From assembly GCA_003562815.1 (NCBI GenBank), contig PWTO01000182.1, positions 7,703 to 71,702 on the forward strand: DNA of 64,000 bases, in the 5' to 3' direction. This document shows positions 21,965-43,073 of the stretch, one piece after another. The notes below the pieces were generated by a model. That model had not been told where the DNA came from and did not search any database. It worked only from the letters and a program-made list of their open reading frames with translations. The stretch is from Chromatiaceae bacterium. GTDB taxonomy: Bacteria; Pseudomonadota; Gammaproteobacteria; Chromatiales; Chromatiaceae. Each line of letters starts with the position of its first letter. Positions within the stretch are counted from its first letter, which is position 1. The position numbers were made by a program, and so were the translations under genes.

Positions 21965-22003
21965 TCTTGATTCGATCCATCGAATCATGAGGAGGAATAG
22001 AAG

Positions 22004-22489: not shown

Positions 22490-24351
22490 TGGCTTTCAAG
22501 ACAATCATCGAAGACGACATCGACATCCTGGTCGCCGGTGCTGGCCTAGGCGGCACGGGCGCCGCGTTCGAGGCCCGGTATTGGGGCCAGAACAAGAAGA
22601 TCGTCATCGCCGAAAAAGCGAACATCATGCGTTCCGGGGCCGTCTCGCAGGGCCTGTACGCGATCAATTGCTACATGGGAACCCGTTTCGGGGAAAACAA
22701 TCCCGAAGATCACGTCCGCTACGCACGTATCGACCTGATGGGCATGGTCCGTGAGGATCTGCTGTTCGATATGGCCCGTCATGTCGATTCGACCGTGCAT
22801 CAGTTCGAGGAATGGGGTCTGCCGCTGATGCGCGACCCGAAGACCGGCGCCTATCAGCGCGAAGGCCGCTGGCAGATCATGATTCACGGTGAGTCCTATA
22901 AGCCGATCGTCGCGGATGCGGCGAAGAAGTCGGCCGACAAGGTCTTCAACCGCATCTGTGTCACCCATCTGCTCATGGACGAAAGCAACCCGAACCGCGT
23001 TGCGGGCGCTGTCGGTTTCAATGTGCGCACCGGCAACTACCATGTCTTCAAGTCGAAGACCGTGATCTGCGGTGCGGGTGGCGCGTCTAACATCTTCAAG
23101 CCACGCTCGGTTGGCGAGGGTGCGGGCCGCGTTTGGTACGCGCCTTGGTCTTCCGGCTCCGCGTACGGTCTGATGATCGGCGCCGGCGCCAAGATGACAC
23201 AGATGGAAAACCGCATCGTGCTGGCGCGCTTCAAGGACGGTTACGGCCCCGTGGGCGCCTACTTCCTGCACCTCAAGACCTACACGCAGAACGGCTATGG
23301 TGAGGAATACGAGTCCAAGTGGTTCCCAGCGCTCGAGGAGATGGTCGGCAAGCGCTATCTTGACATCGAGGCCTCGCACCTAACCCATCGCCCGATTCCG
23401 ACCTGCCTGCGCAACCATGCGTTGATCAATGAGGTCAATGCCGGTCGCGGCCCGATCCACATGGTGACCATGGAGGCGTTCCAAGACCCGCATCTCGAAG
23501 AGATCGGCTGGCACAACTTCTTAGGGATGACCGTCGGCCAGGCCGTCCTGTGGGCGGCCACCGATGTCGATCCCAAGCATGAGAATCCGGAGCTGACGAC
23601 CTCCGAGCCCTATGTGATGGGCTCGCATGCGACCGGCTGCGGCGCCTGGTGCTCGGGTCCGGAGGATGTCTCGCCGCCCGAGTACTTCTGGGGCTACAAC
23701 CGCATGACCACGGTCGAAGGGCTGTTCGGGGCCGGCGACGCCGTCGGCGGCACACCGCACGCCTTCTCGTCTGGCTCCTTCACCGAGGGGCGTCTTGCCG
23801 CCAAGGCGGCCTGCCAGTATATCGACGACGGCAAGGCCGAAGGCATCGTCGTCTCCGACGAGCAAATCAACCGGCGCAAGGAAGAGATCTACAAGCCGAT
23901 GGAGCATTACAAGGTCTATCGCAATGAGATCACGGCCGGATCGGTCAACCCGAACTACATCAACCCACGCCAGGGTCTTGATCGTCTGCAGAAGTTGATG
24001 GACGAGTACTGTGGCGGCGTGACGGTCAGCTACATGACCAACGACAAGCTGCTGAACATCGGCTTGAAGAAGATGAAGGTCATGGAAGAGGACCTGGAGA
24101 AACTGGCCGCAGAGAATATCCACGAGCTGCTGCGGGCCTGGGAACTGAAGCACCGCCACATGACCGCCGAGGCTGTCTTTCAACACACCCTGTTCCGCGA
24201 AGAGACCCGTTGGCCGGGCTACTACTATCGCGGCGACCACATGAAGGTGGACGACGAGAACTGGCATGTGCTGACGGTGTCTCGCCGCGATCCCGAGACC
24301 GGTGAATACACCATGGAAAAGGCGCCTTGTTACCACCTGGTAGACGCGTAG
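22489..24351 (+). CDS. aprA: Adenylylsulfate (APS) reductase alpha subunit
   Basis: 620 aa, DILVAGAGLGGTGAAFEA FAD fold, fumarate-reductase-family core. ATG overlaps the aprB stop. Confidence 0.93.
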   Translation: MAFKTIIEDDIDILVAGAGLGGTGAAFEARYWGQNKKIVIAEKANIMRSGAVSQGLYAINCYMGTRFGENNPEDHVRYARIDLMGMVREDLLFDMARHVDSTVHQFEEWGLPLMRDPKTGAYQREGRWQIMIHGESYKPIVADAAKKSADKVFNRICVTHLLMDESNPNRVAGAVGFNVRTGNYHVFKSKTVICGAGGASNIFKPRSVGEGAGRVWYAPWSSGSAYGLMIGAGAKMTQMENRIVLARFKDGYGPVGAYFLHLKTYTQNGYGEEYESKWFPALEEMVGKRYLDIEASHLTHRPIPTCLRNHALINEVNAGRGPIHMVTMEAFQDPHLEEIGWHNFLGMTVGQAVLWAATDVDPKHENPELTTSEPYVMGSHATGCGAWCSGPEDVSPPEYFWGYNRMTTVEGLFGAGDAVGGTPHAFSSGSFTEGRLAAKAACQYIDDGKAEGIVVSDEQINRRKEEIYKPMEHYKVYRNEITAGSVNPNYINPRQGLDRLQKLMDEYCGGVTVSYMTNDKLLNIGLKKMKVMEEDLEKLAAENIHELLRAWELKHRHMTAEAVFQHTLFREETRWPGYYYRGDHMKVDDENWHVLTVSRRDPETGEYTMEKAPCYHLVDA

Positions 24352-24368
24352 GATTAGGCTCATCTGGA

Positions 24369-24406
24369 GGCGTGGGTGCTCGCTTCGCGGGCTCCACGCC
24401 GTTTTG
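24369..24406 (+). terminator. Candidate intrinsic terminator after aprA
   Basis: Stem GGCGTGG (24369-24375) pairs with CCACGCC (24394-24400), followed by GTTTTG. Confidence 0.4.
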
Positions 24407-24423
24407 CACAAGAATCCCTGTGA

Positions 24424-24774
24424 ATGAATATCAACGATCTGACTGACGAAGAGGTACTTGAGATCGCGCATCCCCTGTGGGATGACCTGGTCAAGTATTC
24501 CAATGAGGGTGCTTACGGGAAATTCATCAAGAAATTCTCGTATGGCTTGTTACTTGGCCTCAATGAGGTGGAGCTGGGTAAACAATTCGCGCACAGTGAG
24601 CTGGCCCGCAACCTGGTCGAGGAGAGAGACTTTCTTGGGCTGATCAGGCGTGGCGAGCATGTCACGGCCCTCTACCGAGTGCGCAGCCAAGCACGCGAAG
24701 GCGAGTGGCTGGGGCGCATGGTCCTCGGTTACGAGAATGGAGACGTGAAGATCTTTGCCGCTTCGATTTTCTAA
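24424..24774 (+). CDS. Hypothetical protein (116 aa), visibly lower GC than its neighbours
   Basis: Clean ORF with protein-like composition (MNINDLTDEEVLEIAHPLWDDLVKY...). No recognised motif and no obvious RBS. Confidence 0.5.
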   Translation: MNINDLTDEEVLEIAHPLWDDLVKYSNEGAYGKFIKKFSYGLLLGLNEVELGKQFAHSELARNLVEERDFLGLIRRGEHVTALYRVRSQAREGEWLGRMVLGYENGDVKIFAASIF

Positions 24775-24778
24775 CGCG

Positions 24779-25306
24779 ATGAAACAGGCCAACCCACAAC
24801 GCATCGAGGACGACAAATTTGTCGAGCTGACCTATCGGGTCATCGATCAGAAGACCGAGGACGTGCTGACGACCGTGGACTTTCCGTTGGGTTATGTTCA
24901 GGGTCGTAACGCGGTGCTGGCGCCACAGGTGATGGCGGAACTCGACGGACGATCGGCGGGAGAGACGATCAGGATTCCGATCGATTGCACGGATCTCTAC
25001 GGTCCGCGCGACGAATCCTTGGTCATCACCGACCGGATCGACAACGTTCCTGTCGAGTACCGGGAAGTCGGGACCGAGATCCTCATGGAAAACGACAAGG
25101 GCGACACCAAGCGCTTCTTCGTCACCCGCATGGATGACAAGACGCTGACCATGGATGGCAACCATCCGCTGTGCGGCAGACAGGTCGTGTTCGAGCTTGA
25201 AATCCTAAGCGTGCGAGATGCGACTGAAGAAGAACTCATCGCAGGCGGCAAGGTGGACAGAGGCGCGGACACCGGCGGCCTCACGACCCGGCCGATCTGG
25301 GAGTAG
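24779..25306 (+). CDS. FKBP-type peptidyl-prolyl cis-trans isomerase (SlyD/FkpB-like)
   Basis: VELTYRV...DFPLGYV...M.ELDG...GNHPLCGRQVVFELEILSVRDAT is the FKBP core with an insert-in-flap pattern. Start taken at MKQANP. Confidence 0.8.
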   Translation: MKQANPQRIEDDKFVELTYRVIDQKTEDVLTTVDFPLGYVQGRNAVLAPQVMAELDGRSAGETIRIPIDCTDLYGPRDESLVITDRIDNVPVEYREVGTEILMENDKGDTKRFFVTRMDDKTLTMDGNHPLCGRQVVFELEILSVRDATEEELIAGGKVDRGADTGGLTTRPIWE

Positions 25307-25610
25307 GAAACAGTTTGCGCATCGCACCATAGACGTGCTCGTAGGTATTGGCGTTTTCACCGCAATGGATGAGTTCGTCGGCATCGGTGCGGAACGTCAA
25401 ATAGGGATGCACCTCGCGACCATCAACCTCAATCCCCGCGACATCGTCGATGACACCGGTAATGCTCAACGCGATGCTGGCGGTGAGGTCTTCTAGCTTC
25501 TCCTGCTCGACGCCCCCTTCTTGAAGCTTGATCTTGATTCTTGCGACGATCTCGCTGACGAAGATCGCCTGCTGCTCGTCGAATTGCGCGCCCGCCAACG
25601 TCAGTTTCAC
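25281..25610 (-). CDS. Hypothetical protein (109 aa)
   Basis: ORF with balanced, protein-like composition. Its 3' end overlaps the convergent FKBP gene by 26 nt. No family recognised. Confidence 0.45.
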   Translation of the reverse strand: MKLTLAGAQFDEQQAIFVSEIVARIKIKLQEGGVEQEKLEDLTASIALSITGVIDDVAGIEVDGREVHPYLTFRTDADELIHCGENANTYEHVYGAMRKLFPTPRSAGS

Positions 25611-25686
25611 GTTCTATACCTTGCATAAGCGAGCGGCCTAGCGAACGTTTCAGTTCACACGGCCGCCATGTTTCATGGGCGGCGTC

Positions 25687-25848
25687 TCAGGGTTTCTTTG
25701 GGGTCTGATAGGCGACTTCTTTCTGGAACTTTTCCCAAATCACCTCGTATCCAACATACCCCTTTTCATTCGGCTGCATCTGACGGGTCACGCAAAATCG
25801 GCTGTGGCCGTCGGGAACCTTGGGGCGCGTTTTCTTTTGATCGCTCAT
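25687..25848 (-). CDS. Small hypothetical protein (53 aa), absent from the ORF track
   Basis: Hand translation gives MSDQKKTRPKVPDGHSRFCVTRQMQPNEKGYVGYEVIWEKFQKEVAYQTPKKP with a TGA stop. A GAGAGG Shine-Dalgarno-like element lies about 7 nt upstream of the ATG. Confidence 0.4.
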   Translation of the reverse strand: MSDQKKTRPKVPDGHSRFCVTRQMQPNEKGYVGYEVIWEKFQKEVAYQTPKKP

Positions 25849-26009
25849 CAATAACCTCTCTGTGTAGAAGGCTAGTCCGGCTTATGCACGAGACAGCAAT
25901 CAGAAGCTATCCCGGCGGAACGCGTCTGTCAAGCCGCCGCAAGCCAATGCAACCTGGACAGAAACGGCTCGCTTCTCGCCGGCACACAGCGCTCGGCCCA
26001 GCGAGCCGA

Positions 26010-26528
26010 TCAGCGCTCGAGTTCCTGGATCTCGAAGCGCATCGTCTCGAGATCGCCGATCGCCCAGGTCGCCGCAGGCGCACCAAGCCCCGCGACCGTG
26101 CCCGGATTGACCAACCAGGTCTGCCCGCCTTTCACGGTCTCTTCCAGGCTCACGAGCGGCTCGTGGCTATGACCGCAGCAGACCAAGTCGTGATCGCCGG
26201 CGCGGGCGAAGGCCTGGCCGATGTGAGGATAATGCGTCATGAAGATCTTGCGGCCGCCGAGTTCCAGGCTCGCATCGTTACCGTAGTACTGGAGCAGCTC
26301 CTCGGACTCGCACGCCAGACGCGAGATGGAGACCGGATCGCCCAGGTTGTTGCCGTGGATCACATGAATCGGCAGGCCGAGCTTGAGCGAAGCGCGCAGG
26401 GTGTTGGTGCCGATCAGATCGCCACAGTGCAGCACGCATTCGGCGCCGCGCATCTTGGCCTCGGCGATCGCGGTGGCGAGCATGGGGCCGCGATCATGGC
26501 TGTCTGAGACGATACAGATCTTCATCAT
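26010..26528 (-). CDS. Metallophosphoesterase (YfcE/MJ0936 family)
   Basis: Motifs IVSDSHD, HCGDL, GNN and GHSH in the canonical order. 20 nt downstream of cysC on the same strand. Confidence 0.8.
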   Translation of the reverse strand: MMKICIVSDSHDRGPMLATAIAEAKMRGAECVLHCGDLIGTNTLRASLKLGLPIHVIHGNNLGDPVSISRLACESEELLQYYGNDASLELGGRKIFMTHYPHIGQAFARAGDHDLVCCGHSHEPLVSLEETVKGGQTWLVNPGTVAGLGAPAATWAIGDLETMRFEIQELER

Positions 26529-26548
26529 GAAAGCCCGGGGCGTTGGTG

Positions 26549-27211
26549 TTAACGGGTGGCGGATAGGATTCCACGCCTGATCAGATCGTCGATGACCTCG
26601 CCGGCGAGTTCCTCCGGCGTCCCTTTGCCCGCATGCAGGATGAGTTCAGGCCTTTCCGGTGCCTCGTAAGGATCATCGATGCCGGTGAAATGCTTGATCT
26701 CCCCGGCGCGCGCCTTCTTGTACAGGCCCTTGGGATCACGCTGTTCGCAGATCGCGAGGGGGGTGTCGACGAAGACCTCGATGAAGTCACCCTCGCGCAT
26801 CATCGCCCGCACCCGGTCGCGATCCACGCGGTAAGGGCTGATGAAGGCGGTCAGCGCAATGGTGCCGGAGTCGCAGAACAGTTGCGCGACGGCACCGATG
26901 CGGCGAATATTTTCTTCCCGATCGATGGCCGAAAACCCGAGCCCGAAACGCTCGGCATAGGCCTCGCCATGGGTCTCCCGGAGCATGCTAGGGCCGGCGT
27001 TGAGCCCGTGTCGCACATTGTCGCCATCGAGCACCGCGCTCTTCACGCCCCGGGCCGCGAGCATATGATCGACCACATTGGCAATCGTGCTCTTGCCCGA
27101 GCCGCTGAGGCCGGTAAACCAGATCACGCAGCCACGATGGCCGTGCAAACGCTCGCGCTCCTCGCGCGAGACCCGGTGATCGTGCCAAGTGACATTCGTA
27201 TCGTTCGCCAT
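26549..27211 (-). CDS. cysC: Adenylyl-sulfate (APS) kinase
   Basis: GLSGSGKSTIAN P-loop, LDGDNVRHGLN and FISPY motifs. Confidence 0.92.
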   Translation of the reverse strand: MANDTNVTWHDHRVSREERERLHGHRGCVIWFTGLSGSGKSTIANVVDHMLAARGVKSAVLDGDNVRHGLNAGPSMLRETHGEAYAERFGLGFSAIDREENIRRIGAVAQLFCDSGTIALTAFISPYRVDRDRVRAMMREGDFIEVFVDTPLAICEQRDPKGLYKKARAGEIKHFTGIDDPYEAPERPELILHAGKGTPEELAGEVIDDLIRRGILSATR

Positions 27212-27734: not shown

Positions 27735-29543
27735 TCAACGGGTCGCAGCCGGTTTGCCGGCGAAGATTGCCATCATACTGGCGGCGATCCGATGTCCAGC
27801 GGCGACGGCGGTGATCACGTCCGGTCCTTGGACCGCGTCCCCGGCTGCCCAGAGCCAGGGCTCGGAGGTGCGCCCGTCGGCATCGATCCGGATGCGGTTG
27901 CGTTCCCACTCCAGCGCCTCGGTCAGCGGTTCGCCTAGGAAGGCGTGATCCGCAGCCTGGCCGATGGCCTCGACGATCAGGCCAGCGTCGTGGAGCTGAA
28001 TGTCGCTGTCGTCGTAGTTCGGCGCGAAACGCCCCTGCTCATCGAAGACCGAGATACAGTGGACGGTCTCTAGCCCAATGACAGCGTCGCGCTCGATCAC
28101 GCACTGACGTGGACCGCGACTGGGGATGATCACAACGCCCTCCTCGCGCGCCTCGTCGATCTCCTCGCGGTCAGCGAGCATCAGGTCTTCGGCCTCAAGG
28201 GCGACCAGGGTAACGCCAACCTTGCCATGCTGCTGGCGCTGCATGCGCGCGAGGCTGCGGGCGATGTCCATGGCAACGTTGCCACCGCCGATGACGGCCA
28301 GGGTCTCTGGAACCTCGAAGCGCTCACCGAGGGTGATACGCCGCAGCAGCTCCACGGCGGAGACGACGTCCCGATGCTCGCTGCCGGGAATGCGCGTGGA
28401 GCGGCCTTGGTGCAGACCGATGGCGAGCAGCACGCTATCGTGCTGCGCGCGTAGTTGATCGATGCTGATGTCCTCGCCGACCCGGGTGCTGCAACGGATC
28501 TCGACCCCCATCGAGCGGATGACGTCGATGTCCTCATCGAGCTTGTCGTAAGGCAGTCGGTACTCCGGGATGCCGTAGCGCATCATGCCGCCGGGAGCGG
28601 GCTGGGCCTCGAACACCGTCACGCCATGACCGGCCTTGGCCAGATCGAAGGCGGCAGTGAGCCCTGCCGGTCCAGCCCCAATGATTGCGACCTGATGCCC
28701 GCTCGGCTCGCTGACGCGCCCCTCGGCGGCGATCTGCTTGATCCGATCGTGCGGAACCTGGTCGATGATGTGGCGCTTGAGCCAGCGGATGGCGATGGGA
28801 TCGCCCTCGTGGCGCGCCGCGCAGCTGGTCTCGCAGCGATGAGTGCAGACGCGCCCGCAGACATTGGAGAAGGGGTTGGTCTGATACAGCAGCCGCACGC
28901 CCTGCTCGTAGGCGCCATCGCGAATGGTGGCGATGTACTCGGGCACTGCCATGTGCGTCGGGCAGGTGGCGACGCAGAGGCCGCAGGAGACACAGCGGTC
29001 AGCCTCGAGCTTGGCCTGCTCGAGGTCGTAGCCGGCAACGATCTCGACGAAAGAATCGGCGCGCGCCTCTGGCTCGAGTTCGCCCATGTCCACGCGCTCG
29101 TTACCGGTAAGCCGATGTCCTTCGGGACGCCGGTAGCCAAGTTCGGCGCTGTCCCAGTGCTTCAGATCGACGCCGGGGGTGAAGCGAAACACCTCCGGGT
29201 CATGGTCCACCCACTTGTACTCGTTCGACATGCTCAGCGAGCTGGTCATGCAGACATCGACACAGAGCGCGCACCAGCAGCAGCGCCCATAGTCGATGCG
29301 CGGGCGCAGACCGGAGTCGCCGGGTTTGGTCGCGATCTCGGCGACCGCAACCATATCGATCGCCGCGTTCTGACAGATCGCCTCGCAGGTGCCGCAGCCG
29401 ATGCACTTCTCGACGTCGTTTTGGTGGAAACCGCGGTAGCGCGGCGCACCCGGTCGATCGTTGAGCGGATCAGGGATGGTGACCGGGTCGCGGAAGAGGT
29501 TCTTCCAGGCACTGAAGGGAGAAAGGACGTCGCTCAAGCTCAT
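27735..29543 (-). CDS. Fusion protein: NuoI/MbxN-like 2x[4Fe-4S] ferredoxin (N-terminal) plus GltD/NfnB/SudA-like NAD(P)H-dependent FAD oxidoreductase (C-terminal)
   Basis: N-terminal CIGCGTCEAIC and CCWCALCVDVC. Then CVSCGLCVATCP and CGRVCTHRCETSC (the GltD-type Fe-S region), VAIIGAGPAGLTAAFDL (FAD site) and LAVIGGGNVAMDIARS (NAD(P)H site). Last gene of the Mrp-Mbx-like operon. Confidence 0.85.
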   Translation of the reverse strand: MSLSDVLSPFSAWKNLFRDPVTIPDPLNDRPGAPRYRGFHQNDVEKCIGCGTCEAICQNAAIDMVAVAEIATKPGDSGLRPRIDYGRCCWCALCVDVCMTSSLSMSNEYKWVDHDPEVFRFTPGVDLKHWDSAELGYRRPEGHRLTGNERVDMGELEPEARADSFVEIVAGYDLEQAKLEADRCVSCGLCVATCPTHMAVPEYIATIRDGAYEQGVRLLYQTNPFSNVCGRVCTHRCETSCAARHEGDPIAIRWLKRHIIDQVPHDRIKQIAAEGRVSEPSGHQVAIIGAGPAGLTAAFDLAKAGHGVTVFEAQPAPGGMMRYGIPEYRLPYDKLDEDIDVIRSMGVEIRCSTRVGEDISIDQLRAQHDSVLLAIGLHQGRSTRIPGSEHRDVVSAVELLRRITLGERFEVPETLAVIGGGNVAMDIARSLARMQRQQHGKVGVTLVALEAEDLMLADREEIDEAREEGVVIIPSRGPRQCVIERDAVIGLETVHCISVFDEQGRFAPNYDDSDIQLHDAGLIVEAIGQAADHAFLGEPLTEALEWERNRIRIDADGRTSEPWLWAAGDAVQGPDVITAVAAGHRIAASMMAIFAGKPAATR

Positions 29544-29601: not shown

Positions 29602-30777
29602 TCACCGTTCGATCTCGGGTGGATAGGTGTGCAAAGAGACCATCAGGGCGGCGACATCGGAGATGTTGCAATTGACGATCAGGCGTTCGAGCAAGGCCAT
29701 CGCATGCGTGTAGGACGGCCCGCGCACATTGACCCGGCGCGGGTAGCCGCTGCCATCGGTGACCAGGTAATAGCCATATTCCCCGCGTGAGCACTCGCCG
29801 CAGATGTAGGTCTCGCCGAAGGGGATCTTCCAGTGCAGGACGTTTGGCAGCGGCGCCATGACGGCCCCTGAGCGTGGCATCCGGGCCAGGATCTGGCGGA
29901 TCAGGTCCACCGACATCAGCAGGTCGCGGCGGCGCACATCGGCGCGCGTAAAGACGTCGGAGTCCTGCCCCACGACCGGCTCGAAATCGAGTTCGGGATA
30001 GACCAGATAGGGCTGATCCCTGCGCACATCCTTGGCCACACCGGCGGCACGCGCGGTGGGACCGGTGACGCCGTATTGATCGACGATCGCGGGGTCGATA
30101 TAGCCGAGCCCGACGGTGCGCTTCTTGAACACCGCGTTCTGGAACATGACATCCTTGACATCGGCGAGTGTGGATTCGATCTCCCGCAGGGTCTCCTCCA
30201 TGCGCTGGTCGAAGCCATCGGGCAGCCCGTCGCGCACCCCGCCGGGCATGATGAACATGTGGTAGATGCGCGCCCCACTCAGCTCCTCGAAGCGATCGAG
30301 CATCAAATCCCGAACATAGGTCGTCCACTGGCCGATGACGCCTTGGCCGAGCGCCCCCGCCTGGCCGCCGAGGTACATCAGATAGCTGTTGATGCGCCCC
30401 ATCTCCAGGATCAGGGTGCGTATCCAATCGGCCCGCTCCGGGACCTCGAGCCCGGCAAGCTCCTCGACTGCAGCGGCATAGCAGTACTCGTTGAAATCGG
30501 GCTCGGGAACGCAGATGCGGCAGACGATCGGGAAGCACTGGATGAAGGTGCGCCGCTCCATCAGCTTCTCGAAGCCGCGATGCAGATAGCCGACATGGGT
30601 CTTGCCCTCGACCACCTCATCGCCGCAGACGGTCAGCTCCACCGACATGTTGCCGGTGATGCCGGGATGCTGCGGCCCCTGCCAGAGCTTCAGATACTTG
30701 CCCGAGCTGAGGTCGATGTCCAGGCTGCCGTCGGGCCGGCGCGACGGGTATTGGCTGCGGTCTGCTTGATACGCCAT
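29602..30777 (-). CDS. NuoD / [NiFe]-hydrogenase large-subunit-like catalytic subunit lacking a complete NiFe site (MbxL/Ehr-like)
   Basis: HVGYLHRGFEKL signature. CRIC at the L1 position (30511-30522). The C-terminus reads HTYPPEIER where the CxxC L2 motif would be. An extra CGEC lies next to the RGE motif (29791-29802). Confidence 0.85.
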   Translation of the reverse strand: MAYQADRSQYPSRRPDGSLDIDLSSGKYLKLWQGPQHPGITGNMSVELTVCGDEVVEGKTHVGYLHRGFEKLMERRTFIQCFPIVCRICVPEPDFNEYCYAAAVEELAGLEVPERADWIRTLILEMGRINSYLMYLGGQAGALGQGVIGQWTTYVRDLMLDRFEELSGARIYHMFIMPGGVRDGLPDGFDQRMEETLREIESTLADVKDVMFQNAVFKKRTVGLGYIDPAIVDQYGVTGPTARAAGVAKDVRRDQPYLVYPELDFEPVVGQDSDVFTRADVRRRDLLMSVDLIRQILARMPRSGAVMAPLPNVLHWKIPFGETYICGECSRGEYGYYLVTDGSGYPRRVNVRGPSYTHAMALLERLIVNCNISDVAALMVSLHTYPPEIER

Positions 30778-30790
30778 CTGATACGCCCTC

Positions 30791-31336
30791 TTAGGCCCCG
30801 TCCGGGTAGAGCTGTGCTTTCATGTGCTGGGCCGGGTCCTGGCTCTCACGCCCTGGGCGCGGCGCGAAGGTCTCGTTGGAATACTTCAGGGTGTCGAAAT
30901 CGCGCCGATAGGGCGGGATCTCGCGCCAGCCTTCGAGGATGAAGTCCTCGTTGACGCCGGGGCTGTCGGGGAAGTCGATGCCGAACATCTCGCGCAGCTC
31001 GCGTTGATAGGTCGCAGCGGTCGGCCAGAGATCGTGGATGCTCTCCATCGGCGCGCCTTCGATCACCGCTTGGCGCGAGAGCATCACCCGCAGCCCGATG
31101 TCGCGGGCGCCTTGGCGGTCGTGCAAGAGATAGGTGAGCTGGAAGCGATCGTCCTCGATCCAATCGACCGCCGTCAGCAGCACCAAATGGGTGAAGCCCT
31201 CCTGGTCGCGCAAATGCAGCAAGACCGGCCGCAGTTGTTCCCTGGGCAGGGTGATAAAGGCCAGATCGGGGCGCTTCTCGCTCAGCTCGCCGAGCGGGAA
31301 TCGGCCCTTCAGTTGTTCATAGAGTTCGCGCAGCAT
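30791..31336 (-). CDS. NuoC-like subunit (MbxK-like)
   Basis: ~180 aa with LLTAVDW...ERE..DMFGI-type pattern (LLTAVDWIEDD, YQRELREMFGIDF). Start at MLRELYEQL avoids overlap with the upstream gene. Confidence 0.8.
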   Translation of the reverse strand: MLRELYEQLKGRFPLGELSEKRPDLAFITLPREQLRPVLLHLRDQEGFTHLVLLTAVDWIEDDRFQLTYLLHDRQGARDIGLRVMLSRQAVIEGAPMESIHDLWPTAATYQRELREMFGIDFPDSPGVNEDFILEGWREIPPYRRDFDTLKYSNETFAPRPGRESQDPAQHMKAQLYPDGA

Positions 31337-31344
31337 CGGTGCAG

Positions 31345-32040
31345 CTACCAGTTGTAATCGGGCATGTCCCAATCATGGATCACGCGCTTCTGGTTCGCCT
31401 TGTACCAGTCGAAGCGTTCGGCATATTGATTGGCTCCTTCACCCTTGCCGGCGCGGACGATGCGCTTGAGTTCCTCGAAGCCGGCCAGCAACGCCTCAGG
31501 CCGAGGCATGCAGCCAGTGATATAGACATCCACCGGCAGGTACTCATCAAGGCGGGTAATGGTGTTGTACGAATCGAAGTACATGCCGCCATTGATCGTG
31601 CAGGAGCCGAGTCCGACCACATATTTCGGGTTCGGCATCTGTTCGTAGGAGCGAATCACCCGCTTCAGGGTCTTCACCGACAGATAGCCTGAGATCACGA
31701 ACAGGTTCGATTGCCTCGGGGTTGGCCGCCATTGAATGCCATAACGGTACGCGTCGAAGCGCGGCGTCATCAGCGGCCGCATCTCGATCGCCCCGCAGCC
31801 GGTGCCGAAGCCTAAAATCCAGAGCGATTCGGCCCGCGCCCAGTTGAACAGCCCCTCGATGATCTTGCTGTAAGCCGCAGGCATCACCGTCGGGGGCGCC
31901 TCGCAGTAATAGTCGCGCAGCGGCTCGACCTCGAACTCGACGCCGTCCGGTCCCTTGACCAAGCGGCGCCTCAGCTCTTCTTTCACCGGCGCGTGCTCGA
32001 TCAGGTCGTCGTCTAGGAGGTCTTCGTTTGTCTGCGTCAT
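31345..32040 (-). CDS. NuoB-like [4Fe-4S] subunit (MbxJ-like) with an acidic N-terminal extension
   Basis: GTGCGAIEM, GLGSCTINGG and TGCMPRPE motifs, with Cys82-Cys147-Cys177 spacing of 65/30 as in NuoB. The first Cys of the tandem CC is Gly here. Confidence 0.85.
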   Translation of the reverse strand: MTQTNEDLLDDDLIEHAPVKEELRRRLVKGPDGVEFEVEPLRDYYCEAPPTVMPAAYSKIIEGLFNWARAESLWILGFGTGCGAIEMRPLMTPRFDAYRYGIQWRPTPRQSNLFVISGYLSVKTLKRVIRSYEQMPNPKYVVGLGSCTINGGMYFDSYNTITRLDEYLPVDVYITGCMPRPEALLAGFEELKRIVRAGKGEGANQYAERFDWYKANQKRVIHDWDMPDYNW

Positions 32041-32053: not shown

Positions 32054-32959
32054 TTAAGCGATCATGATGGCGATCACGCCCAGCGGTACGGCCCAGATCA
32101 AGAACCAGCGAATCGACTGCTCGACCCGGAAGCGCGGGAAGACGACACCCACGATGACCGAGACCAGATAGATCAGAAACACCTTGAGAAAGAACGCCGG
32201 CCAGCTCGCCGCACCGCCAAAGAACAGATTCATGTAGATCACAATCTTGGCAATCGGGAAGATCGCACGATTGGTCTGCATCAGGGCGAGGTAGGACGAG
32301 TGGTACTCGGTCGGCGGTCCGATCGGGATCTCCTGCGGCGCCAGGACGACATCGAACGGCGGGCGCATCATCGTGCCGAGGAACGAGAGCATCGCTGCGG
32401 CGACCGCGATCGGGTTCGTAAACAGGGTCCACTGCAGGATGCCGCCCTGCTGCGCGGCGACGATCTCGGTCACCGAGAGGGTCTGATACTGCACCGCGAC
32501 CGCGTAGACGGCCAACGCGAACGGCAGCTCGGCGGCGGTCACCTGCGACAGCCCGCGGGTGACGCCGATCGCCGAATACGGATGGCCGCTTTCGCCGGCG
32601 CCCAGCGCCATGCCCAGGGAGCCGAAAAAGACGAAGTAGAGCGCCAGGATGAGGTCACCGGCGAAGGACATGTTCGAGAACATCTCGGTGCCGTAGAGGG
32701 TCGGCACGAACATCAGCAGACCGACGCCGCCAGTGAGCCGAAACACCGGGCCCATATAGAACATCACGCCATGGGTGATGGAGCTGCGCAGGCCGTAGTT
32801 CTTGATCAGGTCGAGGTAATTCTGCCAGACCGGGATGCCGTGCCGGCGTCCGACTCGGGCCGCGATCTTGGCCATCACCGCCGTCAGCAGGAAGCCATAG
32901 TTGGCGACGATGAACAAGGTCAGCAGCGCATAGGGGATCTTGATCCATTCGAACGACAT
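32054..32959 (-). CDS. NuoH-like membrane subunit (MbxM-like)
   Basis: 301 aa, polytopic, with a NuoH/HyfC-like pattern. Positioned between the antiporter modules and the NuoB-like gene. Confidence 0.75.
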   Translation of the reverse strand: MSFEWIKIPYALLTLFIVANYGFLLTAVMAKIAARVGRRHGIPVWQNYLDLIKNYGLRSSITHGVMFYMGPVFRLTGGVGLLMFVPTLYGTEMFSNMSFAGDLILALYFVFFGSLGMALGAGESGHPYSAIGVTRGLSQVTAAELPFALAVYAVAVQYQTLSVTEIVAAQQGGILQWTLFTNPIAVAAAMLSFLGTMMRPPFDVVLAPQEIPIGPPTEYHSSYLALMQTNRAIFPIAKIVIYMNLFFGGAASWPAFFLKVFLIYLVSVIVGVVFPRFRVEQSIRWFLIWAVPLGVIAIMIA

Positions 32960-32961: not shown

Positions 32962-35900
32962 TTAGAGCCCTGTCCGCAGGAGGTAGACGACCACGACGAA
33001 CGCCAGCAACTGGATCGCGTACGTTTGTCCGTTACCGGTGTAGAGCCGGCGCAGCAGGTCGGCACTGGCGTGCAAGAGATCGACGATAGCGGCCCAGAAG
33101 CGTTCGACCAGCGGCTCGGTGAGGAAACCAAGCGCCTTGCGGTAGGGCGCGAAGAAGTTCCAGGCGAAATGCGTGGTCTCCGGTCGGAAGGGCCGCTCGC
33201 CGGCAAAGACGATATTGAACTGCTTGACCTTTTGCGCCTTGCGGTTGACGAAGACCAGCCAGGCGAACAGGCTCGCGAAGATCACGCCGACCACGATCAT
33301 GATCGAGATCGGGCTCCAGTAGCCGAAGGCGCTGGTGATGGTGAGGCCCTCCCAGCCCAGGGCGCCCTCGGGATGGAACTGACTGATGTAGGCATCGACC
33401 CGCCGCAACGCGAGCCCAGGAACCAGTGCGAACGCCATCAGACAGGCGACGAAGATCATCTGCGGCAGCACCAGCCAGAACGGTGCCTCCTTGATACGCC
33501 GGTGCTCGTCCTTGAGCTGGCCTAGGAAGATGGTATGGATCAGGCGGAACAGATACAGGAACGCAATCGGCCCCGAGATGAAGATCAGAATCATCGGCAG
33601 CCGGGAGTCGGTCGTCAGGATGGCGTTGTAGAAGATCCAACGCCCACCGAAGCCCGACAAGGGCGGCACGCCGGACATGGCGATGATGCCGATCAGCACC
33701 GCGATGAACGACAGCGGCATCAGGGTGATCAATCCCCCCATCCGATACATGTCACGGGTGCCAGTGCGTTTGGCGACACCGCCGACCGAGAGGAACAGCA
33801 TCGATTTATAGATGTAGTGGTTGATCACGAACATCAGCGCCATGAGCCAACCGAGATGGTTCATCATCGCCAGGCCGAACAACGCATAGCCCATCTGGCC
33901 GATCGACGAATAGGCCAGCAGGCGCTTGGCATCCTCCTGGAACGCGGCCATCAGGTTGCCGATCAGCGCCGAGAGCGCACCGATCCAGAGCAGGATGTGG
34001 GTCAGCTCGACCCCATAGAGCTGCTGGCTGCCCATGGCCATGAACAGGACGAAGAGCCCAAACAGGCCGGCCTTGAGCAGGATGCCCGAGACCATCGGCG
34101 AGACATCGGTCTCGGCCTCGGCGTGAGCGCCCGGCAGCCAGATGTGCAGGCCGACGGCTGCGGTCTTGGTCATGAAGCCGATGGCCAAGAGCAGGAAGAC
34201 CCAGGGTGCCAAGGGGGCGGCGACCTGCTTCAGGCCCGCGAGCGTAAACAGCGGATCACCGTCCGCCGCCAGCGCGAATCCGGCCAGGATCAGGAAGGCG
34301 CCGGCGAGGGAAAACACCATGTACGAGAGCGCATGCGGCTCGGAGCGCTGGCCGCGCAAGATCAGGAAATAAGAGCCGATGGTGAGCGATTCCCAGGCGG
34401 CGAAGAAGCCGAAGGCGTCTTCGGCCACGATCAGCATCGCCAGACCGGCGTACATCAGCATCGCCGAGGGGTAGAAGCCGATGCGCCGCCCCTGGGTCTG
34501 ATAGCTCGCGAGCAGGATCAAGGCGCCACCGATCAGCATCACCGCAGCAAAGATCAACTGCAGCGGATCGTAACTGGGTAGGCTCAGCACGAACCAGGCG
34601 ACCAGCCCGGCGATGGCGAGGCTGTTCTTGATCTGGACCGACAGCGGTTCGAGCACCAGGAAGCCGAACGCGAACAGCAGCGGTACGGCCAGCAGTAGAT
34701 TGCCATTGAGCGAGAGGGCGCCCCAGATCAAGCCCAGGCCCCAGCCAGCAGCCACTGCGGTCAGGATCACCGCGCGCTTGAACGACGACACCGCAACAGG
34801 CTCCGGTGCGCGCTCGCGTTTGAGTGCGCGCCCAAACCATCGGAACAGATAGCCGGCCTCCAGCAAGGCACCGAACAGGATCAATCCGATCAGGGCGATA
34901 CGTCCCTCGCCGGCCAGCGCGATGACCAGCTCCCACTTCGCGTAGAAGCCTGGGAACGGCGGCAGACCGACCAGCAGGGCGATGAAGCTGGCGAAGGCGA
35001 AGATCAGGATCGGATGGCCCTGCAGGGCGCTCCAAGCCGTCAGCGTGCGCCCCTCAATCAGGCCAGACAGCCAATAGAGGCCGGCCTTGGCCACGGCGTG
35101 GGCTAGCAGGATACCGCCGGCAATGAACAGGTAGCGATCACCGAGCAGGTCGCGCTGGCCGATCACCGCCAAGATCAGGCCGATCTGGGCCACCGAGGAG
35201 TAGCCCAACAGGCGCCGGTCATTGCGTTGGGCCAAGGCAAACAGATTGGCACCGACGAAGCCAACGATGCCGATACCGGTGGCCAGCGGAAGCCAGGTCG
35301 AGCCGCCGATCAGCAGCAGCTTATCGGCGGCAAAGAGCGCGGCTGACCCCGAGGCCGCCGAGAGCATCGCCGAGAACGCCGGGTGTGCCGACTCGTAGAC
35401 ATCCAGCGCCCAGCCATTGGCCGGGAACGGCTTCAGGTCCAGAACAATGGCGATGAACATCAGGAAGAAGGCCAACCCGCCGCCCTTGAGCACCAGCGAT
35501 GACACCTCGGCCATGCCGTCGATGTTGAGCGTGCCGGTGGCATGGTAGGCGAAAATAATGCCCACCAGCAGCAGGATCGTGATGACCTGGGAGGCGACCA
35601 GGTACTTGAATCCGGCGGCCAAGGCGCGCTTGTCGCGCGAGAGCAGCACCAGCCCGCCGGTGGCGATGGCGACCAATTCGAAGAAGACGAACAGGTTGAA
35701 CAGATCGCGGGTCAGGACGATGCCGCAGGCCGCCATCGTGAAGATCAGCAGCACGGCCAGCGCACGCCGACCTTGATTGAACATGGTGTCGCGCAGGTAG
35801 ACCGCCGAGAGCAGGCCGGTCAGGTTGATCGATAGGGTCAGGACCGCCTCGGCCAGGCCCATACGCAGGTTGATCGCATACGGCGGCAGGGTTCCGGCGG

Positions 35901-36087
35901 TCGTGATGTCCACCGCGCTGCCGTCCCCGGAGGCCAGCACCCAGACCCAGCCGGCGGAAATCAGGCTCATGCAGGCGAGCGCCGCGAGGCTGACGCCGTA
36001 GGCGCCGGCGCGCCACTCATCGCGCAGCAATCCGAGCAGGAACGCGGCCCCGAGGCCGACCGCAAGGATATAAAGAGCGCTTACCAT
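32962..36087 (-). CDS. Fused tandem antiporter-like subunits (two MrpD/NuoN-type modules in one 1041-aa polypeptide; MbxH+H'-like)
   Basis: Two separate copies of the family signature: GYSSVAQIGLILAVIG in the first half, and WESLTIGSYFLIL plus AYSSIGQMGYALFGLA in the second. Confidence 0.8.
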   Translation of the reverse strand: MVSALYILAVGLGAAFLLGLLRDEWRAGAYGVSLAALACMSLISAGWVWVLASGDGSAVDITTAGTLPPYAINLRMGLAEAVLTLSINLTGLLSAVYLRDTMFNQGRRALAVLLIFTMAACGIVLTRDLFNLFVFFELVAIATGGLVLLSRDKRALAAGFKYLVASQVITILLLVGIIFAYHATGTLNIDGMAEVSSLVLKGGGLAFFLMFIAIVLDLKPFPANGWALDVYESAHPAFSAMLSAASGSAALFAADKLLLIGGSTWLPLATGIGIVGFVGANLFALAQRNDRRLLGYSSVAQIGLILAVIGQRDLLGDRYLFIAGGILLAHAVAKAGLYWLSGLIEGRTLTAWSALQGHPILIFAFASFIALLVGLPPFPGFYAKWELVIALAGEGRIALIGLILFGALLEAGYLFRWFGRALKRERAPEPVAVSSFKRAVILTAVAAGWGLGLIWGALSLNGNLLLAVPLLFAFGFLVLEPLSVQIKNSLAIAGLVAWFVLSLPSYDPLQLIFAAVMLIGGALILLASYQTQGRRIGFYPSAMLMYAGLAMLIVAEDAFGFFAAWESLTIGSYFLILRGQRSEPHALSYMVFSLAGAFLILAGFALAADGDPLFTLAGLKQVAAPLAPWVFLLLAIGFMTKTAAVGLHIWLPGAHAEAETDVSPMVSGILLKAGLFGLFVLFMAMGSQQLYGVELTHILLWIGALSALIGNLMAAFQEDAKRLLAYSSIGQMGYALFGLAMMNHLGWLMALMFVINHYIYKSMLFLSVGGVAKRTGTRDMYRMGGLITLMPLSFIAVLIGIIAMSGVPPLSGFGGRWIFYNAILTTDSRLPMILIFISGPIAFLYLFRLIHTIFLGQLKDEHRRIKEAPFWLVLPQMIFVACLMAFALVPGLALRRVDAYISQFHPEGALGWEGLTITSAFGYWSPISIMIVVGVIFASLFAWLVFVNRKAQKVKQFNIVFAGERPFRPETTHFAWNFFAPYRKALGFLTEPLVERFWAAIVDLLHASADLLRRLYTGNGQTYAIQLLAFVVVVYLLRTGL

Positions 36088-36437
36088 TTCAGATCCTTGA
36101 ACGCGGAGATATCGAGGGTGCGTTTGGTCTCGTAGAGCTTGTACACATAAGCGAGCATCAGGGCTGTGACGCCGACGCCGATCACGATCGCCGTGAGCAC
36201 CAGGGCTTGAGGCACCGGATCGATAATGCGCGCGACGGCCTCGGCGACCGGCACCGCCTCATCGAGAATCGGCGCCGTGCGCCCGTGCATGTAGCCCACG
36301 GCGACCATGACCAGGTTGACCCCGGTGTTGGCCACGGTGAAGGCGACGATCATGCGCAGGATGTTGCGATTGGTCAGCGCTCCGAAGAGCCCGATCAGAA
36401 TCAAGACAAAGCCAGTGGTCATGGCGATATAGGCCAT
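36081..36437 (-). CDS. MrpC/MnhC (NuoK-like) subunit
   Basis: 118 aa, three TM helices. Overlaps both neighbouring genes. Confidence 0.75.
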   Translation of the reverse strand: MAYIAMTTGFVLILIGLFGALTNRNILRMIVAFTVANTGVNLVMVAVGYMHGRTAPILDEAVPVAEAVARIIDPVPQALVLTAIVIGVGVTALMLAYVYKLYETKRTLDISAFKDLKW

Positions 36438-37150
36438 CAGAGATCCTCCGTCTCGGACAGATTCGCCAGCATCGAGGAGAACTCCGCGCCGACCTTGAGG
36501 CCGATGAAGGAGTAGACGATCGGGATCGCCCCCGCCGAAAAGAGTGCGCCCAGGCTGCCGATGGGTAGGATGCGGTTGTCGAGGAACCCGCCTGCGAAGA
36601 AGATGCCGAGCACGCCGATACCGACGAAGACCAGACCGGCGGTGGACTCGATGGTGGCGATCAGACCGTGACTGATGCGCCGTAGCGGATCGGTCAGGAG
36701 CAGCAGGAGAATCGCCGAGGCGAGGATGGCCCCGCCTTGGAATCCACCCCCCGGGGTCAGATGCCCATTCACAAAGACATACACGCCGAGCAACAGAATC
36801 AGCGGAACCAACAACTGGGTGCCGGTGGTGAGCAGCTCGCCCGCCGGTGGCAGCTCGCGCCCCGACCCCTCGCCCTCGCGATGGCCGTGCGACAGCACCA
36901 GGCCGACGATGGCGGCGGTGAGGAACAGCACCGTGACTTCGCCGAGCGTATCGAGACCCCGAAAGGTGACGATGATGGCCGTGACGATGTTGGCCGCACC
37001 GATGTCCTGGGCGGTGTGCTCGGCGTAGTAGCGAGCGCTGAGATTGAGCGCGTCATTGGGGGTGTAGCCGCCCACAAGCCCTGCGAAGATGGCGCCGAGC
37101 CCGAGCAGCAGCAGGATGACGAACAGGCGCCTAATCACGTTCGCCTCCAC
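36437..37150 (-). CDS. MrpB/MnhB-like subunit
   Basis: GAANIVTAIIVTFRGLDTLGEV motif typical of the MnhB domain. GTG start. Confidence 0.75.
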   Translation of the reverse strand: MEANVIRRLFVILLLLGLGAIFAGLVGGYTPNDALNLSARYYAEHTAQDIGAANIVTAIIVTFRGLDTLGEVTVLFLTAAIVGLVLSHGHREGEGSGRELPPAGELLTTGTQLLVPLILLLGVYVFVNGHLTPGGGFQGGAILASAILLLLLTDPLRRISHGLIATIESTAGLVFVGIGVLGIFFAGGFLDNRILPIGSLGALFSAGAIPIVYSFIGLKVGAEFSSMLANLSETEDL

Positions 37151-37388
37151 GCACCCGTCCGAGGACGAAGAAAAATAGGAAGGTGGTCAGGCCACTGCCA
37201 ATCGCGGCCTCGGTCATGGCCACATCCGGGGCGGCCAGCAGTAGATACTGAACCGAGGCCAAGAGGCTCACCAGCCCGGCGGCGAGGATAGCGATGGCCA
37301 GGCTTTGGCGCCCGCGCGTGGCCAGGATCGCCGCCGCCACCATGGTGACGCTCAGCAGCAGGCTCATCTCGATCAGCAATGCGCTCAT
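37131..37388 (-). CDS. DUF4040-type small membrane subunit (MrpA C-terminal / MbxD-like)
   Basis: 85 aa, three TM helices, APDVAMTEAAIGSGL motif. Positioned between the MrpG and MrpB homologues. Confidence 0.65.
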   Translation of the reverse strand: MSALLIEMSLLLSVTMVAAAILATRGRQSLAIAILAAGLVSLLASVQYLLLAAPDVAMTEAAIGSGLTTFLFFFVLGRVRGGERD

Positions 37389-37723
37389 GGCTGCTCTCCT
37401 TGGTCTTCTGCGAGCCGGTCGATCACGGTCTGCGGGGCTTGTTTGACGCCGACTCGATGCGCCGCGCGAGCCAGCACCTGCGACGACAGCGGGTTGGTGA
37501 AGAGCAGAAAGACGCCAATCAACAGCAGGGTCAGCCCCCAGTCCGGGCGCAGGCAGGCAACCCCGGCCAGGGTCAGCAGGGGGCCCAAGGTCGTGGACTT
37601 GGTGCCGGCCTGAATACGATTGTAGGCATCGGGCATACGCACCAAGCCAATCCCGCCGGACAGAAGGAAGGCGGTCCCACCGACGAGCAGGATGGCTCCG
37701 AGCAGATCGAGAACCGAGGCCAT
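37385..37723 (-). CDS. MrpG/MnhG subunit
   Basis: GGIGLVRMPDAYNRIQAGTK motif characteristic of MnhG. Confidence 0.8.
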   Translation of the reverse strand: MASVLDLLGAILLVGGTAFLLSGGIGLVRMPDAYNRIQAGTKSTTLGPLLTLAGVACLRPDWGLTLLLIGVFLLFTNPLSSQVLARAAHRVGVKQAPQTVIDRLAEDQGEQP

Positions 37724-38494: not shown

Positions 38495-38627
38495 CGTGCC
38501 CCCTCTTGGGAAAACGCCAGAGGTGGAGTCAGCGCATCTCGTGCGTCGCGTCACGCCACCAACAACACTGCGCATTTTGCGTCCTGCGCTCGCTGAGCGC
38601 GATGCGATGCGTCAAGAGGTGGGTTGA

Positions 38628-39149
38628 TCAGACGCCGCCGCTGTGCACCGTCTCGTAGTAGAGCTTCTCCAAGGCTTCCTTATGCTTGGCCTCTTCGTTG
38701 GCGAGGTACTCGAAAAGTTCTTTGAAGGGCCCCGCTGGCGCGCTGTCAGCGAGCGAGCGGTAGTGCGTCATCGCGAGATGCTCGCGGCTCATGGCGTACT
38801 GCAGCACCGCTTGATCATCCGGATGCTCGCCGAGGTCGGGCGTCATCACCGCCTCGGCGAACTTGCCGTCTGTGACCGGGCGTTCCACTTCGGCCTTGAT
38901 CTGATCCTCGATGTCGTCGCGCGCCGCCAGTGCCGTGAACAGTTCGTAGTGGCCCTGCTCCTCGTTCGCCAATTCCTCGGCGAGCCAGCGGAAGTTCTTG
39001 CTAACTTTCGGGATCAGATCGGTGTAGAAGTTGCGCGCACTTTCCTCGAAAGACGTCGCGACGCTGAGCACAGCGTCTAGCGTCGTCATGGAACGGATGC
39101 GCTCGTAGCTGGACTGTTGACCCTCAAGTGGGTCGGGCGTTGCTTTCAT
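38628..39149 (-). CDS. Ferritin-like di-iron protein (rubrerythrin-family four-helix bundle)
   Basis: Two E-x-x-H motifs (NEEQGHYELF and NEEAKHKEAL) in repeated helical halves. Start uncertain (39149 or 39089). Confidence 0.65.
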   Translation of the reverse strand: MKATPDPLEGQQSSYERIRSMTTLDAVLSVATSFEESARNFYTDLIPKVSKNFRWLAEELANEEQGHYELFTALAARDDIEDQIKAEVERPVTDGKFAEAVMTPDLGEHPDDQAVLQYAMSREHLAMTHYRSLADSAPAGPFKELFEYLANEEAKHKEALEKLYYETVHSGGV

Positions 39150-43072: not shown

Positions 43073-43073
43073 C

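Follow-up and report, generated by a model that had tools for sequence, protein, structure and literature searches.

Studies of the sulfur-reducing complex MBS from the archaeon Pyrococcus furiosus assigned catalysis to the free iron of a proximal cluster that is held by three cysteines. MbsL C85A/C385A and MbsJ C25A mutants of this complex were fully active in P. furiosus, and no metal was described at the site homologous to the former [NiFe] pocket. Degli Esposti (2015) described an "mbx-like" operon in Thermotoga and proteobacteria, with a gltD-related flavoprotein, a terminal rubrerythrin and "vestigial" cysteines at the first and third Ni-ligand positions. In Thermotoga maritima, mbxA is upregulated 4.4-fold with elemental sulfur, and a putative Mrp-Mbx complex appears in a 2024 study on the Riftia symbiont, with a co-expression neighborhood that includes sulfur-globule proteins, the reductive tricarboxylic acid cycle and hydrogenases. 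Literature searches on the proteobacterial complex yielded genome-level or co-expression mentions and no characterized function. An operon of this type is carried on the minus strand of the window analyzed here, a stretch of 64,000 nucleotides from a Chromatiaceae bacterium (assembly GCA_003562815.1, contig PWTO01000182.1, positions 7,703 to 71,702). The gene under study encodes the subunit L, named like its partners after the MBS nomenclature. By homology, L is the pocket-forming subunit of a widespread bacterial relative of MBS. The operon type is already known yet uncharacterized, and the relocated cysteine signature of L appears to be a modestly novel variant; neither the shifted cysteine pattern nor the cysteine found in the J subunit was met with in the literature.

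The operon shares with the type of Degli Esposti (2015) the Mrp antiporter genes combined with a partial nuo set, a gltD-related flavoprotein joined to or replacing a plain NuoI, a linked rubrerythrin gene, and vestigial Ni-ligand cysteines in the NuoD homologue. That family was credited with the first and third Ni ligands, whereas the clade of the window retains the first only, and a cysteine pair formed by C85 or C86 with C89, the C329/H383/Y385 set and the N-terminal cysteine of J are absent from the 2015 description. With MBS, the complex shares the fold, the RICVPEPD motif of L, the lack of quinone ligands, three proximal-cluster cysteines and the layout of Mrp and Nuo modules, and among solved structures the best relatives are MbsL for L, MbsJ for J and MbsN for the N-terminal part of N. 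P. furiosus MBS retains the first and third [NiFe] cysteines (C85 and C385), whereas L has C89 with Tyr at position 385 and His in place of the canopy Asp, and gains cysteines at positions 86 and 329. The J subunit lacks an equivalent of MbsJ C25 and gains an N-terminal cysteine, the H' and H subunits are fused in one gene, and a rubrerythrin-like gene is linked. Because N is fused to an NfnB/GltD-like NAD(P)H flavoprotein, an electron donor other than ferredoxin is expected, and the predicted redox partner is NAD(P)H, in contrast to the ferredoxin of MBS.

Identity of the L subunit and register of its motifs

The open reading frame of L encodes 391 residues and is preceded by an AAGAGGG ribosome-binding site. 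Its coordinates, the CRIC motif (TGC CGC ATC TGC, C86-R87-I88-C89), the CGEC motif (TGC GGC GAG TGC, C326-G-E-C329) and the C-terminus reading ...SLHTYPPEIER were all confirmed as given by the original prediction, which had been made from the sequence of the window. For a protein with 8 cysteines, at least two CxxC pairs occurred in 0.75% of 100,000 shuffles, so that judged by composition only, such a number of pairs is unusual. The best solved relative is MbsL (6u8y_L; E value of 3e-94), followed by Nqo4 and the mitochondrial 49-kDa subunit (∼1e-55 to 1e-62), MbhL (1.5e-42) and HycE (1.7e-31), and the Pfam domain is Complex1_49kDa. The AlphaFold2 model of L (pLDDT of 92.8) superimposes on 6u8y_L with a root mean square deviation of 1.5 Å over 370 columns and TM scores of 0.91/0.95. 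In the secondary structure of the model, C86 forms the C-terminal end of helix 79-88 and C89 lies in the loop that follows; this i/i+3 spacing would be compatible with a disulfide. The placement of the cysteines in space is based on residue equivalence to solved enzymes and on published statements.

The motif register was set by alignment with true group 4 hydrogenases from a representative search and with HycE and HyaB from Escherichia coli. The four Ni ligands of the hydrogenases align to L positions 89, 92, 385 and 388, of which only the first is occupied by a ligand, C89; the other three are Glu, Tyr and Glu. The CRIC motif is offset by three residues from the L1 CxxC of hydrogenases. Because C89 is the sole retained ligand and C86 is a new cysteine one turn earlier, L does not keep the N-terminal CxxC, as had been proposed; one cysteine of the pair survives, as in archaeal MbsL. 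The proposed loss of the L2 cysteines is correct, with Y385 at the third Ni-ligand position (C385 in P. furiosus) and E388 at the fourth. The CGEC motif, thought to stand in place of the (V/I)EAP residues, aligns instead to the hydrogenase sequence R-V-E-A, which sets C329 at the position of HyaB A507. Both new cysteines, C86 and C329, are placed by homology at the former active-site cavity, and none of C86, C89 and C329 maps outside the former [NiFe] pocket. The site of C86 would be buried, beside both the pocket and the proximal cluster and between the two.

As the original prediction held, the alignment shows a homologue of catalytic subunits that lacks both a hydrogenase and a NuoD site, and by its residues L is neither of these proteins. 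Group 4 [NiFe] hydrogenases (MbhL, 6CFW; HycE, 7Z0S) share with L their ancestry, the HRGxE motif and the canopy positions R331 and S131. In contrast to L, they contain four Ni ligands, an acidic proton donor in the β1-β2 loop, replaced in L by T41/G42, and the canopy Asp; the large-subunit pattern RxCGxC ... DPCxxC is lacking in L. The canopy positions R331, H383 and S131 correspond to R478, D529 and S283 of HycE and to K407, D458 and N185 of the Yarrowia lipolytica enzyme. Strict conservation from hydrogenases to complex I has been reported for the canopy Asp; two clades of the NAD(P)H-linked family have His at this position, and its Bacteroidota clade has Gln or Ala. Complex I subunits of the NuoD/Nqo4/49-kDa type share the fold (TM score of ∼0.9) and the second-sphere cluster arginines R67 and R87, the latter equivalent to Y. 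lipolytica R141 in the second sphere of N2. A functional [NiFe] hydrogenase or a quinone-reducing variant of complex I might be suspected from the superfamily membership and from the NCBIfam NuoD model, which scores L above its cutoff (388 versus 360 bits). Such a function is hardly credible, however, given one of four Ni ligands, the change of the canopy Asp to His, T41 and V90 in place of the quinone ligands H38 and Y87 of Nqo4, CG in J in place of the tandem CC of NuoB, and the absence of the NuoEFG module from the operon, in which an NfnB-like flavoprotein forms the electron input instead.

Conservation of the relocated cysteines

The protein search covered 5.8 billion proteins and yielded 3,553 matches at an E value of ≤1e-20, with the top 120 being 84 to 93% identical to L. 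A scan of genomes, one for each GTDB species, gave at least 575 related stretches, of which the best 80 loci (L001 to L080) provided the locus statistics. The conservation expected of CRIC and CGEC in orthologues holds for C86, C89 and C329, which are invariant in ∼200 proteobacterial orthologues, and fails for C326, which is replaced by Arg or Lys. Among the top 120 homologues, cysteines at positions 51, 86, 89, 99 and 329 are present in all 120, position 385 is Tyr apart from a single Ser, and position 326 is Arg in 119 and Lys in 1. Residue 326 is likewise Arg in 79 of the 80 species loci, with a Thiorhodovibrio metagenome-assembled genome (locus L046) as the exception. The nearest loci belong to a Halochromatium metagenome-assembled genome (99% identity), Halochromatium roseum and Lamprobacter (98% each), and the window accordingly comes from a close relative. 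The five loci that are 98 to 99% identical to L carry CGC or CGT at codon 326; they differ from the window gene by 94 to 100 nucleotides (∼8%) but by just 4 to 8 amino acids (1 to 2%), and R326C (CGC/CGT to TGC) is the one change that all five share against the window. Because residue 326 is Arg or Lys in homologues, including those with 98 to 99% identity, CGEC is not a family motif. From the alignments, it is a private substitution giving a chance CxxC within the family motif RGEC, and C326 is without a family-level role. Two CxxC pairs in the pocket are therefore not a property of the family, C326 being private and C329 being replaced by Ser or Ala in many members of the sister clades. R326C alters an Arg/Lys position conserved from group 4 hydrogenases through the Mbx family and arose independently in the one other genome, L046; the substitution could be mildly deleterious, adaptive, or a sequencing error.

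Two sister clades were obtained from two further homologue searches, while a 50%-identity representative library, which contained many frameshifted fragments, was dropped. Both clades, whose names are taken from few annotated members, share the operon, including the NuoI-NfnB fusion. The first is annotated mostly as Cloacimonadota, Marinimicrobia and Spirochaetia and shows 57 to 68% identity to L; the second is annotated as Bacteroidota and Chlorobi, with ∼63% identity. Position 86 is Cys in 100% of the proteobacterial and 98% of the Cloacimonadota-type sequences (Ser in 2%) and Ile or Val in the Bacteroidota type, where position 85, Val in 100% of the other two clades, is Cys in 75%. C89 is found in 100% of the proteobacterial and Bacteroidota-type sequences and in 91% of the Cloacimonadota type, the remaining 9% having Ala. 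Position 329 is Cys in 100% of the proteobacterial clade, Ser (52%), Cys (38%) or Ala (9%) in the Cloacimonadota type, and Ser in 99% of the Bacteroidota type. Position 383 is His in the first two clades and Gln or Ala in the third, and position 385 is Tyr in 99% of the proteobacterial clade, Tyr (88%) or Cys (12%) in the Cloacimonadota type, and Cys in 100% of the Bacteroidota type. Residues T41, R67, R87, E92, E328, R331 and E388 are invariant in all three clades. Residue 329 covaries with residue 385 in the Cloacimonadota-type clade, Ala or Thr occurring with C385 and Ser or Cys with Y385, which is consistent with the side chains of these two residues being neighbors.

A cysteine at position 85 or 86 together with C89 is found in ∼90% of the sequences across the three NAD(P)H-linked clades. 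On this count, a cysteine three to four residues ahead of C89 is a near-universal hallmark of the NAD(P)H-linked family, present in about 9 of 10 members, with the reservation that shared ancestry confounds the associations between residues. Ferredoxin-type relatives with a stand-alone N, namely, P. furiosus MBS and the loci L173 and L085, have Leu or Pro at position 86 together with C89 and C385, and none of those sampled has a cysteine at position 85 or 86. C81, C86, C89 and C99 are unlikely to bind an additional cluster, since position 99 falls ten residues deep in the following helix and has Leu, Asn or Val in sequences from beyond the proteobacterial clade.

It is possible, if somewhat unlikely, that the cysteines take no part in catalysis: C89 would be a vestige of the Ni site, C86 and C329 would be packing or second-sphere residues fixed by drift and strong overall constraint, and the free iron of the proximal cluster would be the sole catalytic site, as it is in P. 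furiosus MBS. The full activity of the MbsL C85A/C385A and MbsJ C25A mutants directly supports this explanation. The whole of L is under extreme constraint, so that invariance within the proteobacteria is not specific to these residues; 54 positions are invariant across the three clades, and in an entropy ranking of all 391 positions, 86 and 329 come only 243rd and 240th. Residue 329 switches freely between Ser, Cys and Ala, and position 89 tolerates Ala. Contrary to this, three deeply diverged NAD(P)H-linked clades have a cysteine at position 85 or 86 in ∼90% of their sequences, the ferredoxin-type enzymes examined lack it, and C86 substitutes a buried Glu/Gln that in hydrogenases tunes the chemistry of the cluster and the active site.

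Four extra thiols, and no more, are invariant around the pocket in the proteobacterial clade (C86, C89 and C329 of L and C46 of J), and together with the general invariance of E92, E328, R331 and E388 this could point to a new mononuclear metal or small Fe-S site in the former [NiFe] pocket, the novel metal or cluster site of the original prediction. The ligands of such a site would be C86, C89 and C329, with or without J C46, or else C89, E92, H383 and E388. The proposal is very improbable: the ligand set is confined to one clade, with Ser at position 329 in about half of one sister clade and nearly all of the other and with Gln or Ala at position 383 in the Bacteroidota type, no metal is described at the homologous site of MBS, and in the 80 loci no maturation genes are linked to the operon and the flanking genes are not conserved.

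Partner subunits, gene order and distribution

The J subunit matches 6u8y_J, and its C82, C147 and C177 (in GTGC, GSC and GCMP) correspond to C28, C93 and C123 of P. furiosus MbsJ, the ligands of the proximal cluster in MBS. These three cysteines are conserved, with the cysteine pattern CGCGCC in 66 of 71 loci with full coverage, and J lacks an equivalent of the canonical fourth cluster ligand. The nonligating C25 of P. furiosus is Gly in J (GTGC compared to CTGC). An additional conserved cysteine, C46, is located in an N-terminal extension of ∼55 residues within a conserved [YF]-C-x-x-P motif. The C-terminal tail of J, DW(D/N)MPDYNW, is invariant. Both the extension and the tail are absent from P. 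furiosus MbsJ and from the ferredoxin-type locus L173, and the ferredoxin-type J proteins (P. furiosus and L173; L085 holds no J) have CTGC and no N-terminal cysteine.

Since J has Gly in place of C25 and no equivalent of the fourth ligand, either L C86, which maps beside the cluster, or J C46 might be the missing fourth ligand of the proximal [4Fe-4S] cluster. That cluster would then be an ordinary electron transfer cluster shared between the subunits, and catalysis would shift to the C89/C329/H383/Y385 pocket. The N-terminal cysteine of J accompanies L C86 in 89 of 91 loci, compared to 36 of 52 loci without C86, and the CTGC of ferredoxin-type J proteins with no N-terminal cysteine fits the same pattern. 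This assignment is nevertheless improbable. The Bacteroidota-type cysteine at position 85 rather than 86 is hard to reconcile with a fixed ligand geometry, S86 occurs in two loci, and 16 of the 52 loci without C86 have Ser, Leu, Thr or Glu at J position 46; phylogeny confounds the association itself, and position 46 falls in a variable, poorly alignable region. A separate suggestion from 10 loci, that L C85 and J C46 are mutually exclusive sources of one thiol, was abandoned when 139 loci were compared, as 23 of 32 C85-type loci carry J C46 as well.

The N subunit is a fusion protein. Residues 6 to 110 match MbsN/NuoI (6u8y_N), and residues ∼148 to 596 match the NADPH-binding NfnB (4ylf_B; 5.6e-68); the protein carries CxxCxxCxxxC motifs and two GxGxxG/A motifs. 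The flavoprotein half is closest to NfnB, the Nfn subunit with the electron-bifurcating FAD (4ylf_B and 5jca_L). In every NAD(P)H-linked locus examined, a single gene encodes the antiporter-like subunits H' and H (MbsH' and MbsH) as a fusion; in the ferredoxin-type locus L173 they have separate genes. The rubrerythrin-like protein contains two ExxH motifs and no rubredoxin domain; it is always linked to the operon, with a homologue located behind N in the majority of the 80 species loci and ahead of MrpE in the Halochromatium group. From its linkage, it may protect or repair the three-cysteine cluster or serve as a redox partner.

Table 1. Positions of the operon, of selected residues and of adjacent sulfur genes in the window
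Feature	Position	Strand	Remarks
L	29602-30777	-	391 aa
L CRIC	30511-30522	-	
L C86	in 30511..30522	-	new Cys; equals HyaB (Hyd-1) E73; Glu/Asp in hydrogenases
L C89	in 30511..30522	-	first [NiFe] ligand position; equals HycE C241, HyaB C76, P. furiosus MbsL C85, Thermus position 86
L E92	30502..30504	-	second [NiFe] ligand position; equals HycE C244; invariant across three bacterial clades
L CGEC	29791-29802	-	
L C326	29800..29802	-	Arg-to-Cys (CGC to TGC) at superfamily-conserved Arg/Lys
L C329	29791..29793	-	equals HyaB A507 / HycE A476; two residues ahead of canopy Arg R331
L R331	29785-29787	-	canopy Arg
L H383-T384-Y385	29623..29631	-	in place of hydrogenase D-P-C (canopy Asp, third Ni ligand); D-N-C385 in P. 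furiosus MbsL
L H383	29629-29631	-	canopy Asp position
N	27735..29543	-	602 aa; MbsN/NuoI-like 2x[4Fe-4S] plus NfnB/GltD-like FAD/NAD(P)H domain with two further clusters; NCBIfam PRK13984, 1e-260
K	30791..31372	-	NuoC-like; Pfam Complex1_30kDa; no Cys
J	31345..32040	-	MbsJ/NuoB-like; 231 aa; 6u8y_J, E value 3e-63
J C-terminal tail	31345-31380	-	
J C46	31903-31905	-	
M	32054..32959	-	NuoH-like, membrane anchor of chamber; Pfam NADHdh, 1.7e-43
H'/H	32962..36087	-	fused antiporter-like (NuoN-like plus NuoM/MrpD-like); 1041 aa; two Proton_antipo_M stretches
NuoK/MrpC-like	36081-36437	-	
MbhE/MnhB-like	36437-37150	-	
MbhD-like	37131-37388	-	
MrpG-like	37385-37723	-	
MrpF-like (likely)	37723-37983	-	
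MrpE-like	37976-38575	-	start uncertain
Rubrerythrin/ferritin-like di-iron protein	38628..39149	-	Pfam Rubrerythrin, 8.4e-13
sat	19739-20941		
QmoC-like membrane protein	21107-21964		probably AprM
aprB	22004-22489		
aprA	22489-24351		
Metallophosphoesterase	26010-26528	-	
APS kinase	26549-27211	-	adenosine 5'-phosphosulfate kinase

The operon comprises 12 genes in the order E-F-G-D-B-K-H'H-M-J-K-L-N, combining an Mrp-type antiporter with a NuoH/B/C/D/I-like module, and this order is retained in every complete locus of the 80 species and in the sister clades. The best 80 loci come from Chromatiaceae, Sedimenticolaceae, Thiobacillaceae, Gallionellaceae, Dechloromonas/Azonexus, Thiothrix, Magnetospirillum/Magnetovibrio, Magnetococcales, Rhodobium and others. 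Conservation is highest in L, with 84 to 92% identity compared to ∼66% for N. This level of identity in L extends across alpha-, beta- and gammaproteobacteria and even to a metagenome-assembled genome labeled Spirochaetales, and the operon is self-contained, a combination that suggests horizontal spread under very strong purifying selection. In the window, a dissimilatory sulfur oxidation cluster (19739-27211) adjoins the operon. A conserved sulfur gene neighborhood was considered and rejected, as the adjacency of sat-aprBA and the APS kinase gene is local and no flanking gene family recurs in more than 8 of the 80 loci. Directly upstream of the operon lie large open reading frames (39254-46703, plus strand), which we take to be recC- and recB-like from sequence features only.

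Proposed sulfane-sulfur chemistry and its significance

From the features described above, the complex is most likely an NAD(P)H-linked, ion-translocating sulfane-sulfur oxidoreductase of the MBS type, in which the C86-x2-C89 pair together with C329, H383 and Y385 would form an auxiliary thiol set. This assignment is tentative. It draws on the MBS subunits as closest solved relatives, on the gene order, on the absence of quinone ligands and of all Ni ligands but one, on a J subunit with only three cluster cysteines, and on the conservation of the cysteine ahead of C89. A link to sulfur comes from the induction of T. maritima mbxA by elemental sulfur and from the co-expression of the Riftia symbiont complex with sulfur-globule proteins. 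Electrons would pass between NAD(P)H/FAD and the three-cysteine proximal cluster by way of two NfnB-type and two NuoI-type relay clusters. Sulfane sulfur, in the form of polysulfide or persulfide, would be reduced in the chamber formed by L, J and M, or oxidized in the reverse direction at the expense of the ion gradient. The buried C86-x2-C89 pair, lying between cluster and pocket, may assist the S-S chemistry or tune the labile iron. With C329, H383 and Y385, the pair could act as a persulfide/disulfide relay of the kind found in ferredoxin:thioredoxin reductase or, again, as a tuner of the labile cluster iron. The proteobacterial residues C329, H383 and Y385, which stand for an ancestral Ala, Asp and Cys, could supply protons. 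The linked di-iron protein would fit the protection or repair of an oxidant-sensitive three-cysteine cluster.

The likeness to ferredoxin:thioredoxin reductase and heterodisulfide reductase lies in a cysteine pair (x2 or x3) beside a [4Fe-4S] cluster with an open or labile iron. A cysteine pair beside such a cluster suits the two-step reduction of an S-S bond by a one-electron donor. These enzymes have no sequence or fold kinship to L, and the comparison is only an analogy of how the site might work.

Several points weigh against a sulfane-sulfur oxidoreductase with catalytic thiols. In the Cloacimonadota-type clade, Ala replaces C89 in 9% and Ser replaces C86 in 2% of the sequences, the family extends to Bacteroidota, Cloacimonadota and other groups that are not known to respire sulfur, and all three-dimensional statements rest on homology. 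The transfer of electrons from NAD(P)H to polysulfide spans ∼50 to 60 mV under standard conditions, which is little for a pump with two antiporter modules. Because of this low energy yield, reverse running, with sulfide or polysulfide reducing NAD(P)+ at the cost of the ion gradient, would be as plausible as the forward direction in lithotrophs. The literature offers no measured activity for an NAD(P)H-linked enzyme of this family, and the 2024 Riftia paper gives the complex as "unknown function/direction". Furthermore, because the MbsL C85A/C385A mutant is fully active, the one cysteine shared with L is dispensable in the archaeal enzyme. The thiol/persulfide or metal chemistry suggested by the original prediction may still apply to C86 and C89, with the caution that this mutant calls for.

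A bolder version of the same chemistry is distinctly unlikely. Here, the lost nickel site would have been rebuilt as a thiol-based catalytic center, in which C85 or C86 and C89 of L, C46 of J and the proteobacterial C329/H383/Y385 set act with the three-cysteine [4Fe-4S] cluster, either in a manner like that of ferredoxin:thioredoxin reductase and heterodisulfide reductase or with a cluster shared between the subunits. The complex-I-type pump would directly interconvert sulfane sulfur and NAD(P)H. If this is true, the enzyme running backwards on the ion gradient would make NAD(P)H in sulfur- and iron-oxidizing autotrophs, and in the forward direction it would carry out the dark reduction of stored sulfur in purple sulfur bacteria.

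The operon is common, with its hundreds of GTDB stretches and thousands of metagenome protein matches, and its carriers include purple sulfur bacteria, relatives of chemosynthetic symbionts, Gallionellaceae, Dechloromonas and magnetotactic bacteria. The residues of interest are C86, C89, C329, H383 and Y385 of L and C46 of J, while C326 is a red herring. If the relocated cysteines are catalytic, they would represent a third solution for the substrate pocket of complex I besides the nickel-iron and quinone sites, one that goes beyond the bare-cluster chemistry of archaeal MBS. The complex would then be a candidate for a quinone-independent supply of NAD(P)H in sulfur lithotrophs and for the dark reduction of stored sulfur.

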